A program made the translations under genes and the position numbers. Below are positions 2,058-7,906 of a DNA stretch of 20,000 bases, in pieces. Location: positions 58,561-78,560 of the IMG/VR virus record IMGVR_UViG_3300017963_000244. The stretch is one strand, 5' to 3'. A model generated the notes under the pieces. The model was not told where the DNA came from, did not search any database, and worked only from the letters and a program-made list of their open reading frames with translations. The number at the start of each line of letters is the position of its first letter. Within the stretch, counting starts at the first letter, position 1. This DNA is from an uncultured virus (IMG/VR IMGVR_UViG_3300017963_000244) (taxonomy: Duplodnaviria > Heunggongvirae > Uroviricota > Caudoviricetes).

Positions 2058-4655
2058 GTGACCCCTGAACAACTCGAACAGGTTCTTGCGGCGTTTGCGT
2101 CCGACGACGCGGCCGCCGTGATTGCGAAATGCACAGGTGTGCCACGGGGTCACGTCTACAAGCTCTGGAAAGAACAGTTCGGACCGCGAGCTCTTCGGGA
2201 TCGGGGCAACCGACTTCGCGGCCTGGCGAAGAGTCGTTCGGGAAACTCGGCCAGAACTGAGGTTCGCGACGCCGCCATCGCTGCCTTCGAAGAGGGGGAG
2301 GCGATGAAGGCCGTCGCGCTCCGGTTGGGGGTTCACTACACGCAGATTCGTGAGTGGTGGGTTGAGGTTTACGGGGTGGAGACGGTGGCCGAGCGGGGCC
2401 GTGCCCTTCAGAGGACTCGAACTCGTGCTAACCATGAGAGGCTCAGGGGAAAAGCGCGAAAGGTCCGCGTTATCTCGGTACCTTGTGACGCGTGCGGTCG
2501 GGATCTTGAGGTTTCTACCATCTCGGCGGCTAAAAGTTCGCGAATCGTGTGTTCCTCCTGCGAGCAGTCGGAACGAGGGGCCGACACCGCGTGTCCCGTC
2601 TGTGGTCGACTCTGCGTCGGGAAAAGGGGACTCGCGAGCCACTTAGGGAGCGCCAAAGATGAGGTCCATCGCGAGTATCTTCGGCACCAGGAAGAAGAGC
2701 GTCTTGGAGAGGAGGGTCACGGGCACGTGGTGTGCCTTGAGTGCGGCCATCGTGCTCGGAATCTGTGGAAGCATCTTGAGGCGGAACACGAGATGACACC
2801 CTCCGAGTATGTCGGAAAGTGGCCGGGTGCGTGCTGGCGTACCGAGGCGGCAGAACGAGCACGAGTGCGACGGTCCTCTGAGGCACGTTCGGCCAGCGGC
2901 TTTGGAAAGGGGACGCGGAAGATCGTGGCATGTCCCCAGTGTTCAACGGAGGTCGAGGTCTCTCGTTTTGCGGGGCCGCTTCACGATCTACGCTGTGACG
3001 AGTGCAGGGCAGAGGACGAACTGAAGACATGGTGTGGGAAGAGCGAACCCGAGGACTACGTCTCCTGTCGAGAGTGTGGATTTCGGGCAGAATTTCTCAT
3101 CTCTCATGTCCGATCCGCACACGACCTTGCAGAGTACGTGACTCGTCATCCGGATGCGCCGTTCACGGCGTGTCGGGCTGGTCAGCGGAAATCACCGAGT
3201 ACGAAGCTCGTGCTAACGAAGGAGCAGCTGGTGCCCTTCATGGATGAGGGGCGCGTTGTCGCGGCCGCCGCGGCGAGGGCCTTCGGGTGCGCGCAGTTTC
3301 AAATTCGTCGGGCGTGCAACGAGCTGGGGCTGCAAACCCGACGGCGGCTCGCCTGGCAGAAAGCGGTCCTGGATCGTGCCGCGTCGTATCTGGGCGTCGG
3401 CTACAAGTCGGAGTGGACCGATTCAAGGATCGTCAACGAGGCAACCGGCCGGAAGCTTCACTACGATGGCTTCTTTCCTTCCCGGAACTTGATCATCGAG
3501 GCTCACGGGGACCAGCATTTCTTCTTCATCGAAGCGTGGCACCGCACCTACGAGGAGTTCGAACGCCTGCGCGAGTTGGATCGCTTCAAGCTCAGGCGCG
3601 CTCAGGAGCTCGGGTTTGCCGTGAAGGTCGTCCGGTACGGGGACGCGATTCACGAGAGAGGCTTCTGGAGACGGCTCCTGGAGGACGACCGGGCGCTGTG
3701 GGCCAACAAGTCGGAGAGCGAGCGCCGGGACGACGTGGAGAGGGTGCTGCGGGAACTGAGGGTCTCGGGATTCCCCGACATCCTTCCCTCCCCGAAGACA
3801 CGCGCCGAATTCACGAAACTCCAGAGACAGACGATCTATCTGGACTCGTCGGGAACGATCCGTCCACAGACGACGCGAGGCACGACGGCGTGTGCCTCTT
3901 TTTTTCCGAACAGGTACCGGGCCCGTTACAAGGGGGCGCCGAGCGTGCTGGAGGCGTGGGACGACGACGACAGGTTGCGCAGGGCAGTTCGGGTACAGAT
4001 GGAGGCGGGACATCCCACCACCCCTCACCGTGTGCTGCGGGCCCTCCAGATGATCTGTCGAACGCCCTCCGTGTTTCGTCCCGGAGTCGCCAAATACGTC
4101 TGTCAGACCTACTGTCGCGAGGGGGGGACCGTCTGGGATCCGTGTGCCGGCTACGGGGGGCGTCTTTTCGGCGCGATGGCAACGCACGTGGGGGCCTACC
4201 TGGGCACGGACGTCGAGCCCGAGATCGTCGAGGGAAATCGGAGATTGGCGCAGGAGATCGGCGTCTCCGATCGATGTCAAGTGGTTCAGGCGGCGGCCGA
4301 AGAGTTCGATCCCGAGTCCCCCCTCGATTTGGTATTCACGTCTCCACCGTACTACGACCTTGAAAGCTACGGGTCGCGGTCCGATGCTCGGGCCTACTCC
4401 GACGTGGGCGAGTGGCTTGAGCGTTTCCTGGTGCCCGTGATCAACAAGGGCGCCGAGCATCTCAGGTCCGGCGCCTACTTGATCCTGAATCTTCCGGCCA
4501 AACCCCGCGCCGGCGTCGTCCTTGCCGACGAGGCCGTCAAGATCGCCGTACGAGCTGGTCTCGGGGTTCAGCCCGTCGTTTTCATGCCCGTCAGGCGCCT
4601 TCGGACCTCTCGATCTGCATGGAAGGACCCGCTAGTCGTTTTTCGCAAGCCGTAG
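2058..4655 (+). CDS. Multidomain protein: HTH x2 + zinc ribbons/C2H2 fingers + HTH + Vsr/DUF559(EDxHD)-like endonuclease + amino (N4C/N6A) DNA methyltransferase
   Basis: HTH-like segments (AAVIAKCTGVPRGHVYKLW; MKAVALRLGVHYTQIREWW; AAAAARAFGCAQFQIRRAC). Multiple CxxC pairs at ~2484-3160, including Ros/MucR-like VCLECGHRARNLWKHLEAEHEMTPSEY. Nuclease-like LHYDGFF...IIEAHGDQH...ELDRFK...VVRY at ~3351-3645. SAM-binding motif DPCAGYGG (4137), YLGTDVE and catalytic DLVFTSPPYYDLE (SPPY at 4341). Confidence 0.8.
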   Translation: MTPEQLEQVLAAFASDDAAAVIAKCTGVPRGHVYKLWKEQFGPRALRDRGNRLRGLAKSRSGNSARTEVRDAAIAAFEEGEAMKAVALRLGVHYTQIREWWVEVYGVETVAERGRALQRTRTRANHERLRGKARKVRVISVPCDACGRDLEVSTISAAKSSRIVCSSCEQSERGADTACPVCGRLCVGKRGLASHLGSAKDEVHREYLRHQEEERLGEEGHGHVVCLECGHRARNLWKHLEAEHEMTPSEYVGKWPGACWRTEAAERARVRRSSEARSASGFGKGTRKIVACPQCSTEVEVSRFAGPLHDLRCDECRAEDELKTWCGKSEPEDYVSCRECGFRAEFLISHVRSAHDLAEYVTRHPDAPFTACRAGQRKSPSTKLVLTKEQLVPFMDEGRVVAAAAARAFGCAQFQIRRACNELGLQTRRRLAWQKAVLDRAASYLGVGYKSEWTDSRIVNEATGRKLHYDGFFPSRNLIIEAHGDQHFFFIEAWHRTYEEFERLRELDRFKLRRAQELGFAVKVVRYGDAIHERGFWRRLLEDDRALWANKSESERRDDVERVLRELRVSGFPDILPSPKTRAEFTKLQRQTIYLDSSGTIRPQTTRGTTACASFFPNRYRARYKGAPSVLEAWDDDDRLRRAVRVQMEAGHPTTPHRVLRALQMICRTPSVFRPGVAKYVCQTYCREGGTVWDPCAGYGGRLFGAMATHVGAYLGTDVEPEIVEGNRRLAQEIGVSDRCQVVQAAAEEFDPESPLDLVFTSPPYYDLESYGSRSDARAYSDVGEWLERFLVPVINKGAEHLRSGAYLILNLPAKPRAGVVLADEAVKIAVRAGLGVQPVVFMPVRRLRTSRSAWKDPLVVFRKP

Positions 4656-4708
4656 ATCTCTCCGCTTTTCCCCCTATCGGGCCCCCTCGGCATCAGGAGG
4701 GCACTGTC

Positions 4709-5104
4709 ATGCGGGACGACCTGTACGCGGGCTGGCATCTGCTCTTCGATGCCTTCGTAGACCCCGAGCACGCCGAGCGTCTGGACGACGCCGAGTTTCT
4801 TGAACGGTTATTCCGAGATCTCGTGGAAGTGCTCGACATGGAGATCCTCGGGGAACCGGCGTTCAAGAAGATTCCCTGCGATCCCTCCAGGCTGGACACG
4901 GAGCATGACGAGGGCGGCGTGACGGGTACCGTCATCGTCACCACGAGCCACCTGAGCATCCACACGTGGCCCCTGCGGAAACGCTTCTGCCTCGACGTGT
5001 TCTCGTGCAAGCAGTTCGATCACCTCGCGGTCGAGAGGCTCGTGAGGGCACGCCTCCGCGTCGAGAGGCGGTCGAGTCGCTGGATCCCACGGACGTGGCC
5101 GTGA
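4709..5104 (+). CDS. speD: S-adenosylmethionine decarboxylase (SpeD)-family pyruvoyl proenzyme, atypical
   Basis: AGGAGG at 4695-4700 supports ATG 4709 rather than the track start 4619; 131 aa. GWHLLFD...GGVTGTVIVTT|SHLSIHTWP...LDVFSCKQFD matches the prokaryotic AdoMetDC pattern GxH...GVSGVVVISE|SHxxIHTWPE...DxFTC. Confidence 0.8.
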   Translation: MRDDLYAGWHLLFDAFVDPEHAERLDDAEFLERLFRDLVEVLDMEILGEPAFKKIPCDPSRLDTEHDEGGVTGTVIVTTSHLSIHTWPLRKRFCLDVFSCKQFDHLAVERLVRARLRVERRSSRWIPRTWP

Positions 5105-5307
5105 GCGATTTTCACGAACGGCTCTCCGAATTCATGAACGTGTCGCCGACCGAGCTCGCGCGTCGGCTCAGAAGAGAGGATGACCCCGAGAAGCGCCGAG
5201 CGATGCGCCGGGCCCTCGAGGCATGGCGGCTGACGGAGGGGAATCCCCTGACCCGGAGTGCCTCGCGCGTCGCCCGCACGTGGCTGGCTTCGTTTCTACG
5301 TTTATAG
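5101..5307 (+). CDS. Small hypothetical protein (68 aa), translationally coupled to the speD-like gene
   Basis: The GTG start overlaps the speD stop (GTGA at 5101-5104). Charged, helix-like sequence MSDFHERLSEFMNVSPTELARRLRREDDPEKRRAMRRALEAWRL...SASRVARTWLASFLRL. Confidence 0.6.
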   Translation: MSDFHERLSEFMNVSPTELARRLRREDDPEKRRAMRRALEAWRLTEGNPLTRSASRVARTWLASFLRL

Positions 5308-5382: not shown

Positions 5383-6174
5383 ATGGCTAACAAAGACCTC
5401 GCCCCCGCGAACGGCGTACAGGGCTCGAGCTACATCTACGACTTCGGAACGTCCCCGCAGACGCGAACGGCGGTGAGTCAGAAGGTCCGTCTCCTGACGC
5501 CGGCCTACGGCTCGGATGCGAACCTCCTGTTCCAGATGGGGGTCCTGAGCTCCTTCACGCCGAACGAGACGCGCACGATCGACACCCTGCGCGGGATCGG
5601 CTTCGGCGACATGATCGCCGAGCTCGTGCCGTCGGTGACGGAGGCGATGACGGCCGGCTTCGAGCGGGCACTCCTGTACCTCTCGAACCTCTGGCAGGCC
5701 ACGGGCTACGCGGGGGGCGCCTCGGGCCCCGTCAGGAGCCTGCGGCACCATCGCTGGCCCTTCGACATCGAGCAGCAGCTCGTGTTCTCGACCCTCGCCG
5801 ACTACGACCTCACGGGTCAGGCGGGCGTCGGGTTCAACGGGGGCGGCGGCACCTTCGACGGGGGCGTGAAGGAGATCGTCTACCCGCAGGTCACCAACGA
5901 TCCCAACAACTTCCCCGGCGACCTCCGGGGTCACACGGCGATCATCACGCTCTACGAGACCTGCTGGTTCAACTCCTGGTCCCTCACGAACGTGAGCCGC
6001 GACACGGGGATGCTGATGGAGACCGGGGACGTGACCATCAGCGACGTCCACGACTTCAGCTCCGAGTACGGAGAGTTCCTCGCCACCGGCAACGACCCGA
6101 CCATCGGTCAGGTCGGGTCCGTCCGGTTCAACGTGGGCGATCAGCGGACCGCCTCCGACTTCATCACGACGTAA
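5383..6174 (+). CDS. Tail tube protein (putative)
   Basis: GAGGAAGG SD; strong G/C-ending codon bias like the sheath. Tube-like pattern (GVLSSFTPNETRTIDTLRGIGFGDMIAELVP...WPFDIEQ...IITLYETCWFNSWS...GMLMETGDVTISDV). Position between sheath and chaperones/TMP. Confidence 0.75.
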   Translation: MANKDLAPANGVQGSSYIYDFGTSPQTRTAVSQKVRLLTPAYGSDANLLFQMGVLSSFTPNETRTIDTLRGIGFGDMIAELVPSVTEAMTAGFERALLYLSNLWQATGYAGGASGPVRSLRHHRWPFDIEQQLVFSTLADYDLTGQAGVGFNGGGGTFDGGVKEIVYPQVTNDPNNFPGDLRGHTAIITLYETCWFNSWSLTNVSRDTGMLMETGDVTISDVHDFSSEYGEFLATGNDPTIGQVGSVRFNVGDQRTASDFITT

Positions 6175-6262
6175 CCCTGAGACTTCGCGGGTAGGGTGAG
6201 GGAAAGCGCCCTTCCCGCACGGTGCCTCTCGGCCCCAGGGTTGGGAGGTCTTAGTGCTAACC

Positions 6263-6436
6263 GAGCAATCGGTGGAGCGTCGCAGACGCAAACGTGAATG
6301 TGAAACACATGGGAACGAACAGATCCCTCGAGCTGTAGCCTCCTCCTCTCCCTCGGGAGACGGTCAGATGTGGACGAGAATGGGATCGAACCAATGTGAA
6401 TCTCTTGCGCTGTGAAAACGACCCACCGGCTTGCTC
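6263..6436 (+). ncRNA. Candidate structured RNA (long imperfect rod, ~174 nt)
   Basis: Nested complementary segments found by eye: 6263-6275/6423-6436, 6279-6282/6419-6422, 6283-6291/6405-6412, 6306-6313/6391-6398, 6322-6327/6382-6387, and an apical hairpin TCTCC-CTCG-GGAGA at 6347-6360. Lies in the only long intergenic gap of the window. Confidence 0.45.
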
Positions 6437-6457
6437 CACGACAGAGTGGAGAGAGTC

Positions 6458-7906
6458 ATGGTCACTTTAAAAGCCCTTGAGGCCGCGATCGTTCAGGTCG
6501 AGCGCATCCGCGATTTCGAGTATTCGTTCGAAGCCAATGACGTCGAGATCACGCTGAGACCTCTGCGTCCCGACGAAGAGACCGAGGTCCAGCGATATGC
6601 CCAGATCGCGATGGAGGACTTGGAGGAGGGTGAGGCGACTCAGGCGGCCTTCGCTGACTTCATGGATAGGATGCGGCATGCTTCGTTGGCGTTCGCCATC
6701 GTGCAGATTGGGGACCTGGATCTTCGGGACGTCGAGTACGTCGAGACTGGCGAGCAGGACGAACAGGGCAGGCCCGTCTCGGTGCCGAAGTGGGAGGGTC
6801 TCCGGAACATGATCGGGCAGGAGTGGACGCGCTCAATGCTCAGTCAAGTGTTCGCGCGATTCGGAGAACTTCTCGAACGAGTGGAGCTGAGAGCGTCCAA
6901 AAGCGTGAAATTCGACGCCGTCGACCTGGACGAGGAGATCGCTCGTGTGGAACGGCGGCTCGCCGAGCTCCGCGCCGCGAAGCAGACTCTTGAGGCATCT
7001 CCTGAGGAGGACAACGTACGCAAACAGCAGCGTCTCCTGACGGAGATTCAGAGGACTCGGCAGCAGCAACATGACAACATCCGCGGCGGCACGGCGACGG
7101 GGGACGTCGAGGAGTCCGCGAGCGCGTCGGAGCCCTCAGGAGAGAAAGTCGAGGCGTCGAAACCCGCACCGAGCGACGGTTCGGCAGTCGAACCCCGGCC
7201 CTCCTCGGCTGAGACGACCTCTCGACCCGTGGGAGAGCGGCCCTCGGCTTTCCCCGATGCCGGGCCTCCGCCTGAAGTCGATCGGCCGGACGCTTCTGAG
7301 GGGCCTCTCGGCGGCGCCGAGACGCAGGACCAGGAAGGTTCCGAATCCCCGTCGAAGCGTACCGAAGCCGTCGATTCACAGAACATTCCACTTCCACATG
7401 GAGGAGACTCCTTCTTTGATCCCACTGACCCAGATGAGGCCATGGAGATCGAGGCCCATCGTCAGGAGATGCTGCATCGGCAGCACATCCTCCGACAACG
7501 CGAACGTAGGCTGGAGGAACAGAGACGCGAGGCTTTGGGGATGCCGAGTGCGGCTGAGGCGGCTCGAAAGGCGCAAGAGGCCCAGAGACAGGCGCAGGTC
7601 CCGCAGAAGGCAGCTCGGCTCGATCCTCGCACGAGCTCCCTGAGAGAGGCCGCCAACGTCTCCGATGCCGTCTTCGACGCAGGCACCGGCAGCATTCAGT
7701 CGGCGCGCCCCCCAACTCCTCGATCGCAGAGATCCGGTAAGGGGACGACGGCCACCTTACACGGCAAGCCCGTCTACAAGATGCCCCCACAGACTCTTGA
7801 GAGGAAGGAGGCCACCGGAACGCCGGATCAAGGCGAACCCATGGTGCCGATCAACCCGCCTCCGGGATCGAGGAACGAGCGATTCAGAGGTCCTGGCGAA
7901 CGGTAG
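6458..7906 (+). CDS. Tail assembly chaperone-like protein with long low-complexity C-terminal extension (putative)
   Basis: GGAG SD at 6448-6451 and ATG 6458, preferred over the track start 6431. N-terminal ~170 aa (VEITLRPLRPDEETEVQRYA...LAFAIVQIGDLDL...WTRSMLSQVFARFGELL) has the look and position of a tail chaperone. It is followed by a coiled-coil and a P/S/E-rich region. Confidence 0.55.
   Translation: MVTLKALEAAIVQVERIRDFEYSFEANDVEITLRPLRPDEETEVQRYAQIAMEDLEEGEATQAAFADFMDRMRHASLAFAIVQIGDLDLRDVEYVETGEQDEQGRPVSVPKWEGLRNMIGQEWTRSMLSQVFARFGELLERVELRASKSVKFDAVDLDEEIARVERRLAELRAAKQTLEASPEEDNVRKQQRLLTEIQRTRQQQHDNIRGGTATGDVEESASASEPSGEKVEASKPAPSDGSAVEPRPSSAETTSRPVGERPSAFPDAGPPPEVDRPDASEGPLGGAETQDQEGSESPSKRTEAVDSQNIPLPHGGDSFFDPTDPDEAMEIEAHRQEMLHRQHILRQRERRLEEQRREALGMPSAAEAARKAQEAQRQAQVPQKAARLDPRTSSLREAANVSDAVFDAGTGSIQSARPPTPRSQRSGKGTTATLHGKPVYKMPPQTLERKEATGTPDQGEPMVPINPPPGSRNERFRGPGER

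Follow-up and report, generated by a model that had tools for sequence, protein, structure and literature searches.

What function is served by a folded stretch of RNA that occupies the gap between two tail genes of a huge phage? The window (the whole 20,000-nt stretch of DNA that was analysed) is the end of a 78.6-kb virus record estimated to be 15% complete, and within it a gap of 283 nt (6175-6457) separates a 263-aa gene that ends at 6174 from a 482-aa gene that starts at 6458. An earlier note, made from the letters alone, placed in that gap a rod-like RNA of six nested helices, and offered for it the roles of a 6S-like decoy, a protein sponge, an RNase III processing stem or a cis-regulator that steps expression down; the coordinates and sequences that it named, including the length of the gap and an apical hairpin TCTCC-CTCG-GGAGA at 6347-6360, are correct. 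The analysis described here indicates that the gap holds a conserved folded RNA that is real and apparently represents an uncatalogued family. With moderate confidence, we read it as a ligand-gated translational switch placed before a probable tail-chaperone gene and flipped by a protein whose predicted binding sites are the repeat arms and the apical hairpin. The parts of the locus are collected in Table 1.

Table 1. Features of the tube-to-chaperone gap and its flanking genes (window positions)
Feature	Position	Strand	Remarks
Probable tail tube gene (263 aa), upstream neighbour	5383..6174	+	ORF; name from gene order
-10-like box GGTAGGGT, predicted promoter, start near 6204	6190..6197	+	Inside hairpin 6187-6218
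GC-rich hairpin with degenerate U tail; terminator-like in close relatives	6225..6254	+	Fold prediction
Closing helix P1, 5' strand (anti-anti-SD strand)	6263..6275	+	Pairs with 6423-6436, C6430 bulged; compensatory changes
Helix P2, 5' strand (CAG-A-CGCAA)	6278..6291	+	Partner is the conserved UUGYGCUGU word 6405-6413; 72-75% of cells paired
Repeat arm 1, purine-rich RAY words, likely single-stranded	6292..6327	+	Inner pairing not conserved
First copy of UUGNGCUG word; may pair with 6361-6367	6328..6336	+	85% of cells paired
Shared module: C/U-rich tract, hairpin 6347-6360, single pyrimidine C6361, GGUCAGA tail	6340..6368	+	
Repeat arm 2, RAY words oriented as in arm 1	6369..6404	+	
3' strands of P2 and P1; 6428-6439 also form the anti-SD strand	6405..6439	+	
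Shine-Dalgarno (SD) region, GGAG at 6448-6451	6446..6457	+	Hidden in predicted ground state
Controlled gene, 482-aa protein, probable tail assembly chaperone	6458..7906	+	N-terminal ~180 aa conserved; putative name

The identities of the two flanking genes, which the earlier note had called tail tube and chaperone, are plausible by gene order, with no confirmation of either name from Pfam, PHROGs or PDB. The upstream gene is assigned as the tube from its position between a sheath gene and a 1075-aa gene that is itself read as the tape measure by position only; its product is 37.6% identical to a 'virion structural protein' of the cultured phage Tunturi_5, and a single-sequence structure model of it (pLDDT 29) was unusable for identity. 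The long gene that precedes the tube displays 33% identity (E 9e-47) to a Tunturi_5 protein annotated as 'tail sheath', as well as a weak match to Phage_sheath_1C (E 0.038). For the 482-aa protein, searches of Pfam, PHROGs and PDB returned no match and the ESM Atlas pointed to Phage_TAC_5 at 0.86, short of the 0.9 threshold; it is probably a tail assembly chaperone, and a homologue of it lies directly 3' of the tube gene in 69 of 79 loci and is absent from that place in the other 10. The sheath gene (record positions 53126-60574) is very long, encoding 2482 aa or about twice the Tunturi_5 sheath (1204 aa), and the interval between sheath and tube (window 2058-5307) contains an 865-aa zinc-finger/endonuclease-like/methyltransferase gene and an AdoMet decarboxylase-like gene. 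Tunturi_5, the only cultured relative found, is without the element, and has at the corresponding place a 72-nt gap followed by an unrelated gene. Four tube relatives in genome_contigs lie on short or phage-like contigs of metagenome bins, and no host is assigned from them because those bins carry unrelated labels.

The distribution of the element was established from the 286 relatives of the tube protein in viral_contigs, of which 80 were kept (79 loci); these provided 51 distinct tube-to-chaperone gaps, this window counted, in which the presence of the element was scored by eye. It is found in 27 of the 51, in gaps of huge-phage relatives that measure 190-286 nt, and is absent from 22, of which 17 measure 45-124 nt and 5 hold an inserted ORF; two odd gaps were left out of later counts. 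One of the latter (L054:3799-3954) has two CTTGCGCTGT words and an SD hairpin with almost no arms, and resembles a reduced form, while the other (L047:3772-4078) has a different long fold with some CAGAT repeats. Inserted homing-endonuclease-like ORFs were also noticed by eye, after the tube stop in L027, L030, L053, L060 and L073 and before the sheath gene in L146 and L149. Relatives that bear the element include genomes of 435,804 nt (complete), 536,053 nt and 618,736 nt, so that genomes of the clade span about 435-620 kb.

The other copies are 38-82% identical to that of the window. Mean identity is 46% across the poorly conserved stretch 6175-6260, versus 81-84% at the ends of the element. 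A covariance model was built from 16 members and tried on the 11 that had been held out; it recovered 9 of these, in the same place each time, and gave no match in element-free gaps, its sole other match being an opposite-strand self-hit; it also identified two further distinct copies in complete or large genomes, and each genome searched carries one full copy. Four members seen by eye were missed by the model (L016, L051, L084 and L195), among them a short variant (L084:~3900-4065) and an AT-rich one with AUAY/ACAY repeats and no UUGNGCUG word (L195:~2300-2485); a further variant (L192:2309-2483) is without the apical hairpin. The earlier note had recognised no known family, and this judgement is borne out: at the gathering score Rfam gave no match in the window or in 10 related loci, and at E <= 10 it gave only two unrelated matches of 16-18 bits. 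ARAGORN reported 0 tRNA or tmRNA genes, and a T-loop-like word on the minus strand was considered and rejected as a tRNA. A literature search yielded no description of the element, and none was seen in PMC7824862, PMC10690425 or bioRxiv 10.64898/2026.10.21.760802; a search of part of the supplement of PMC10690425 gave no match, and the element may still be listed there, unnamed, among 8,495 IMG/VR candidates.

On a tree of the tube proteins, the distribution of the element requires 7 changes, compared with 19.2 when labels are shuffled; this result shows clustering only, for which the simplest reading is an old element with several losses. The same pattern of at least 7 gains or losses might be expected of a mobile or neutral insertion, as might the bimodal gap length (45-124 nt or an inserted ORF without the element, 190-286 nt with it) and the presence of endonuclease-like ORFs in this very gap in some relatives. 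Such an insertion, or a fold that arose by chance, is nevertheless largely refuted, and hardly credible, given the covariation described below, the single full copy in each genome searched, the fixed position and the clustering on the tree.

Folded alone, the 6263-6436 segment reaches -64 kcal/mol (z = -3.05, with none of 200 shuffles as good), whereas its minus strand gives z = -1.79 (5 of 200 as good), and values of z <= -2 were obtained for 22 of the 27 members. When 16 members are aligned by plain MAFFT, 82.8% of cells are paired, as opposed to 34-48% in slid controls, and two-sided changes occur in 11 of 39 pairs (24 cells versus 8.6 in shuffled alignments, a value reached in 0 of 500); the model-fitted alignment, whose 26 distinct rows include a partial one and one from the opposite strand and which is biased towards structure, shows them in 24 of 39. 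For both alignments the control shuffles ignore the relatedness of the members. In the apical hairpin all five pairs exhibit two-sided changes, while the loop that caps it, mostly UUCG, CUCG or variable, differs among members in length as well as in sequence. The predicted closing helix P1, helix P2 and apical hairpin are thereby supported by covariation. The UUGNGCUG word shows little covariation, its central pairs being invariant. For the GG that follows the hairpin, the partner may be either the upstream GCUG (in pairs that show no variation) or, with a one-base bulge, the CC of the C-rich tract.

The picture of six nested helices survives in its outer helices and apical hairpin, which covary, and fails in its interior. 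The inner helices (CACAT/ATGTG, GG/CC and GATCCC/GGGATC) form 13 of 13 pairs in this genome and 3-8 of 8-13 in each of 15 relatives, and most of them are open in the centroid structure. A continuous rod was consequently rejected, its inner helices being specific to this genome, in favour of an arrangement in which repeat arms of about 36 nt lie on each side of the hairpin. Across the 27 members, RAY words are spaced 4, 5 and 6 nt apart 76, 41 and 60 times, respectively, compared with approximately 15, 14 and 13 in shuffles, and number 336 on the plus strand versus 143 on the minus strand; RRAY enrichment reaches z >= 2 in 14 of 27, and the enriched words of the arms are CAGA, AGAT, GATG, GACG, AGAC and GAAC.

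The closing helix itself, described in the earlier note as 13 bp long, pairs as was claimed, but once the 3' context is included it represents only one of two exclusive states. The Shine-Dalgarno sequence of the gene that starts at 6458 lies within 6446-6457, a segment with which 6428-6439 can alternatively pair; the interval given in the earlier note ends shortly before this decisive portion. In folds with the 3' context the outer half of the closing helix yields to a hairpin on the ribosome-binding site; the fold with a hidden SD is the best, at -69.0 kcal/mol, compared with -63.4 for the rod with a free SD. The 3' strand of P1 and the strand of the SD hairpin overlap by at least 4 nt in 25 of the 27 members (in the remaining 2 the automatic duplex chose another strand), and the three strands concerned (P1 5', closing/anti-SD and SD) change together across members. 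Considered by itself, the SD hairpin shows 89.6% pairing in the plain alignment and modest covariation (2 of 6 pairs, with a score reached by 29 of 500 shuffles). The median predicted cost of opening the ribosome-binding site is 5.0 kcal/mol with the 5' strand of the element and 13.4 without it, and in every one of the 27 members the strand lowers this cost. Even in the full fold the SD stays mostly paired, with a mean unpaired probability of 0.26, and its median accessibility is 0.12 in leaders with the element versus 0.35 in those without, a difference driven by 11 close relatives. What emerges from the compared sequences is a pair of predicted, mutually exclusive helices, one of which hides the SD, and the SD-hidden fold is predicted to be the ground state by about 5 kcal/mol. 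Among the roles first suggested, a cis-regulator of the downstream tail gene is now the best supported, with exclusive pairing to the SD in place of a simple step down.

Where the RNA begins and ends bears on whether it is a leader at all. In all 27 members the element immediately precedes the same gene, and a word of the form RRTANNNT follows the tube stop in 25 of 27 gaps with the element and in 22 of 22 without it (2 of the latter by way of a weaker word), against an expectation of 3-8% per 60 nt; consensus scans of 5900-6700 for sigma-70 promoters and terminators found none. A GGTANNNT box, often GGTAGAGT, is seen after many genes of the clade, usually within an inverted repeat (window 6190-6197; L025-L070 gaps; L133, L135, L136 and L137), and is probably the promoter consensus of the clade. 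No terminator-like 3' end follows the element in any of the 27 members. Because a -10-like box stands upstream and no terminator comes after, the element is most likely a 5' leader switch, and a 5' leader is how it is best read.

That simple leader model is complicated by a terminator-like hairpin with a U tract. Seven of the 27 members, all of them close relatives and this window not among them, have one between the box and P1, where it may reduce transcription that reads through from the tube gene or attenuate the promoter of the leader itself. The same hairpin would be welcome to an explanation in terms of transcription or RNA turnover, according to which the element is an antitermination or loading site, or else a processing or stability element, RNase III-type stems included, that parts the tube mRNA from the downstream mRNA; the element heads long segments of the tail operon (sheath and chaperone), and lambda nut sites likewise work as hairpin-plus-box elements. 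We regard this as quite unlikely, considering that the conserved alternative pairing is with an SD rather than with a terminator, that 20 of 27 members have no upstream terminator, and that the helices are short and interrupted. The RNase III stem that had been suggested is unlikely: its long helices are broken by bulges and loops, and the longest, at 13 bp, carries a bulge.

A free small RNA, either a 6S-like decoy of RNA polymerase or a protein sponge, would be consistent with the size and closed ends of the element, with its repeated words (which suit a sponge), and with a predicted start that falls right at P1 in several members, the -10-like box lying only 5-15 nt before P1 in 7 of the 27. 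It is set aside as very unlikely: no Rfam match, to 6S RNA or otherwise, was obtained, a conserved continuous rod and a 3' terminator (0 of 27) are both wanting, the element always ends 20-55 nt before the start codon (about 21 nt here) and pairs with the SD of that gene, and its relatives elsewhere in the genome are likewise tied to gene starts. The idea of a decoy finds no support, while that of a sponge is retained in part, since a protein-binding surface fits the repeat arms, as a portion of the mRNA instead of a free RNA.

Those relatives appeared when the record was scanned for the hairpin and its flanks (a C-rich tract, hairpin, pyrimidine and GGYCARA). In the 78.6-kb record this 'module' occurs at three sites on the plus strand, namely the chaperone leader and the positions before the sheath and DUF5659 genes, and at none on the minus strand; the densest plus-strand RRAY stretches of the record fall at the same three places. 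In viral_contigs the strict pattern gave 30 matches (near-identical contigs counted separately), comprising 10 chaperone, 9 sheath and 6 DUF5659 leaders and 5 elsewhere that look like chance. The site before the sheath gene (record 52690-52900) belongs to a sibling structured element that has its own closing helix and repeat arms; of 14 distinct sheath loci, 7 have the module, one has a variant of it, 4 have diverged and 2 contain an inserted ORF in the stretch that was inspected. In one complete genome (G003) both UUGNGCUG words occur in the sheath leader as well. An antisense-target search of the element's own record matched only the sheath-leader module. Because the full covariance model scores the sibling poorly (7.3 bits here and 8-13 bits in relatives), the two elements evidently share parts and not the whole fold. 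By eye, a short helix can also be drawn in the sheath leader (record 52690-52960; L081:1405-1675; L140-L160), in which GGCUGCUUC pairs with the 5' strand of the closing helix; it spans the stop of the upstream zinc-ribbon gene and could compete with the closing helix, and such competition would couple translation of the zinc-ribbon gene to the fold of the sheath leader.

The third site precedes a small gene (record 24433-24774; L087:1490-1831) whose 91-aa product matches DUF5659 (PF18903, E 4e-11). There the module is bare, and it is found just before the SD in 10 of 26 distinct DUF5659 loci (one spurious locus left out); in this leader the RAY words run on into the first codons.

These observations can be assembled into a mechanism, one that draws on features brought out by sequence comparison, namely the closing helices and the apical hairpin, a closing strand that overlaps the strand of the SD hairpin, RAY arms with periodic spacing, and a module used more than once. 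Transcription would begin at the predicted phage promoter immediately downstream of the tube gene. The 3' strand could then pair either with the element's own 5' end or with the SD of the gene at 6458, and the SD-hidden fold, the predicted ground state, would be the 'off' state. Since transcription reaches the closing strand ahead of the SD, the open ('on') fold would arise first; invasion by the SD strand would follow, with 6437-6439 as a 3-nt toehold, unless the loop is kept closed by a bound protein. A protein seated on the hairpin and arms would thus preserve the 'on' fold, so that binding turns translation on, and one such protein might coordinate the synthesis of sheath and chaperone.

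The ligand of the switch is presumed to be a protein. First among the candidates is the small DUF5659 protein, since the ribosome-binding site of its own gene is directly preceded by the bare module in the close clade; second is the zinc-ribbon protein, encoded immediately upstream of the sheath leader. The assignment of DUF5659 is a tentative and rather doubtful one: its gene is present in 7 of 10 genomes searched, 5 of which are without the element, the DUF5659 leaders of element-free genomes, where read, are without the module, and the complete genome G003 has the element with no module before its DUF5659 gene. The zinc-ribbon gene, for its part, is present in 10 of 10 genomes, whether they carry the element or not. 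A structure model of DUF5659 (pLDDT 72) had no Foldseek match at E <= 0.001, with VIA best at Z 3.6, and the literature search found no mention of the family.

That neither candidate protein tracks the element across genomes is one of several points in favour of a leader that tunes translation with no ligand, its open purine-rich arms serving as a ribosome standby or S1-loading surface and its two folds determining how much chaperone is made per tube, either at a constant level or for a limited time. The arms are A/G-rich and probably unpaired, and from member to member the two folds differ by a similar energy (median 5.0 kcal/mol). A standby site, however, needs neither strict repeat periodicity nor a reused sequence-specific hairpin, and the strict 4-6-nt periodicity of the RAY words, their strand bias and the appearance of the module in three leaders exceed what it would demand; this alternative appears unlikely, although less so than the others considered here. 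The ligand-gated switch is the reading that we carry forward. In its boldest form, a conjecture that is possible yet decidedly speculative, one phage protein (DUF5659, or else a free tail subunit through which assembly is sensed) would run a translational regulon for building the tail of huge phages, docking on the bulged hairpin, spreading along the 4-6-nt RAY repeats and clamping the long-range helix, and so turning on sheath and chaperone while throttling its own gene.

The family spans a large clade of huge phages and has a two-state design for which candidate ligands can be named. If the proposal is true, it would define a new family of RNA, give DUF5659 its first function and reveal a post-transcriptional timer of virion assembly, would show how very large phages balance their tail parts after transcription, and might supply synthetic biology with a compact switch. 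A short in vitro transcript and a protein of 80-90 aa suffice to test it, with neither phage nor host required.

A comparison with regulatory RNAs that operate by similar principles places the element in context. Translational riboswitches are platforms built from SD, anti-SD and anti-anti-SD strands, and the element follows the same switching logic; unlike them, it matches no Rfam aptamer, has a core of repeats and a small hairpin instead of a compact pocket, and precedes structural genes. In the trp leader of Bacillus, periodic single-stranded repeats (about 11 (G/U)AG triplets with 2-3-nt spacers, bound by TRAP) lie beside the hairpin that blocks the trpE SD, and long-range refolding controls translation. 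The likeness to TRAP/trpE lies in periodic leader repeats next to an SD-sequestering hairpin; the differences are that RAY words at 4-6-nt spacing form two arms around a hairpin and that the targets are virion genes, and a TRAP-bound leader was rejected in that the enriched words are not (G/U)AG triplets. CsrA/Rsm sites present multiple GGA words in hairpin loops, and a CsrA/Rsm sponge or operator was likewise discarded, arm 1 of two members (L009 and L012) having no GGA while keeping its RAY words. A Ro60 Y-RNA helix was dropped as well, its strand order being different.

6S RNA binds the holoenzyme of RNA polymerase and is a template for the synthesis of pRNA. 6S RNA, at 185 nt with a closing stem and central bubble (PMC3847290), has a similar length, closing stem and open centre, and differs in that the present element has no Rfam match, terminator or conserved rod and is tied to an SD. 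The operators of T4 gene 32, gene 43 and RegA bring about repression through occupation of the ribosome-binding site, those of RegA being A+U-rich and unstructured and that of gene 32 using a pseudoknot (PMC3014915; PMC535899). Like them, the element would represent phage-encoded control of translation initiation that combines leader structure with an open tract, and the module before the DUF5659 ribosome-binding site would be autogenous; unlike them, it has an exclusive pair of helices at the SD, of a kind not described for T4 in those sources (PMC3014915; PMC535899). In phage Mu com/mom, a leader stem hides the translation start signals, which are exposed when a small zinc-finger protein occupies a nearby hairpin (PMC6483171). 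The Com motif CC(N)2-3GAG is not present as such in the hairpin of this copy, where the loop region at 6351-6359 has 4 nt between CC and GAG. The element belongs to none of these systems (Mu com/mom, TRAP, 6S RNA or the T4 operators). Protein-gated phage RNA switches are known from few cases in the literature compared (Mu Com and T4 gp32, gp43 and RegA), and none of the phage RNA switches described there controls tail building through a shared RNA module. Mu com/mom offers a parallel in its leader-hidden start signals, with a CCCC-type zinc-ribbon gene here standing directly before the sibling sheath leader; the element departs from it in its domain of about 175 nt, its long-range anti-anti-SD helix, its two repeat arms and the placement of its module before three genes.
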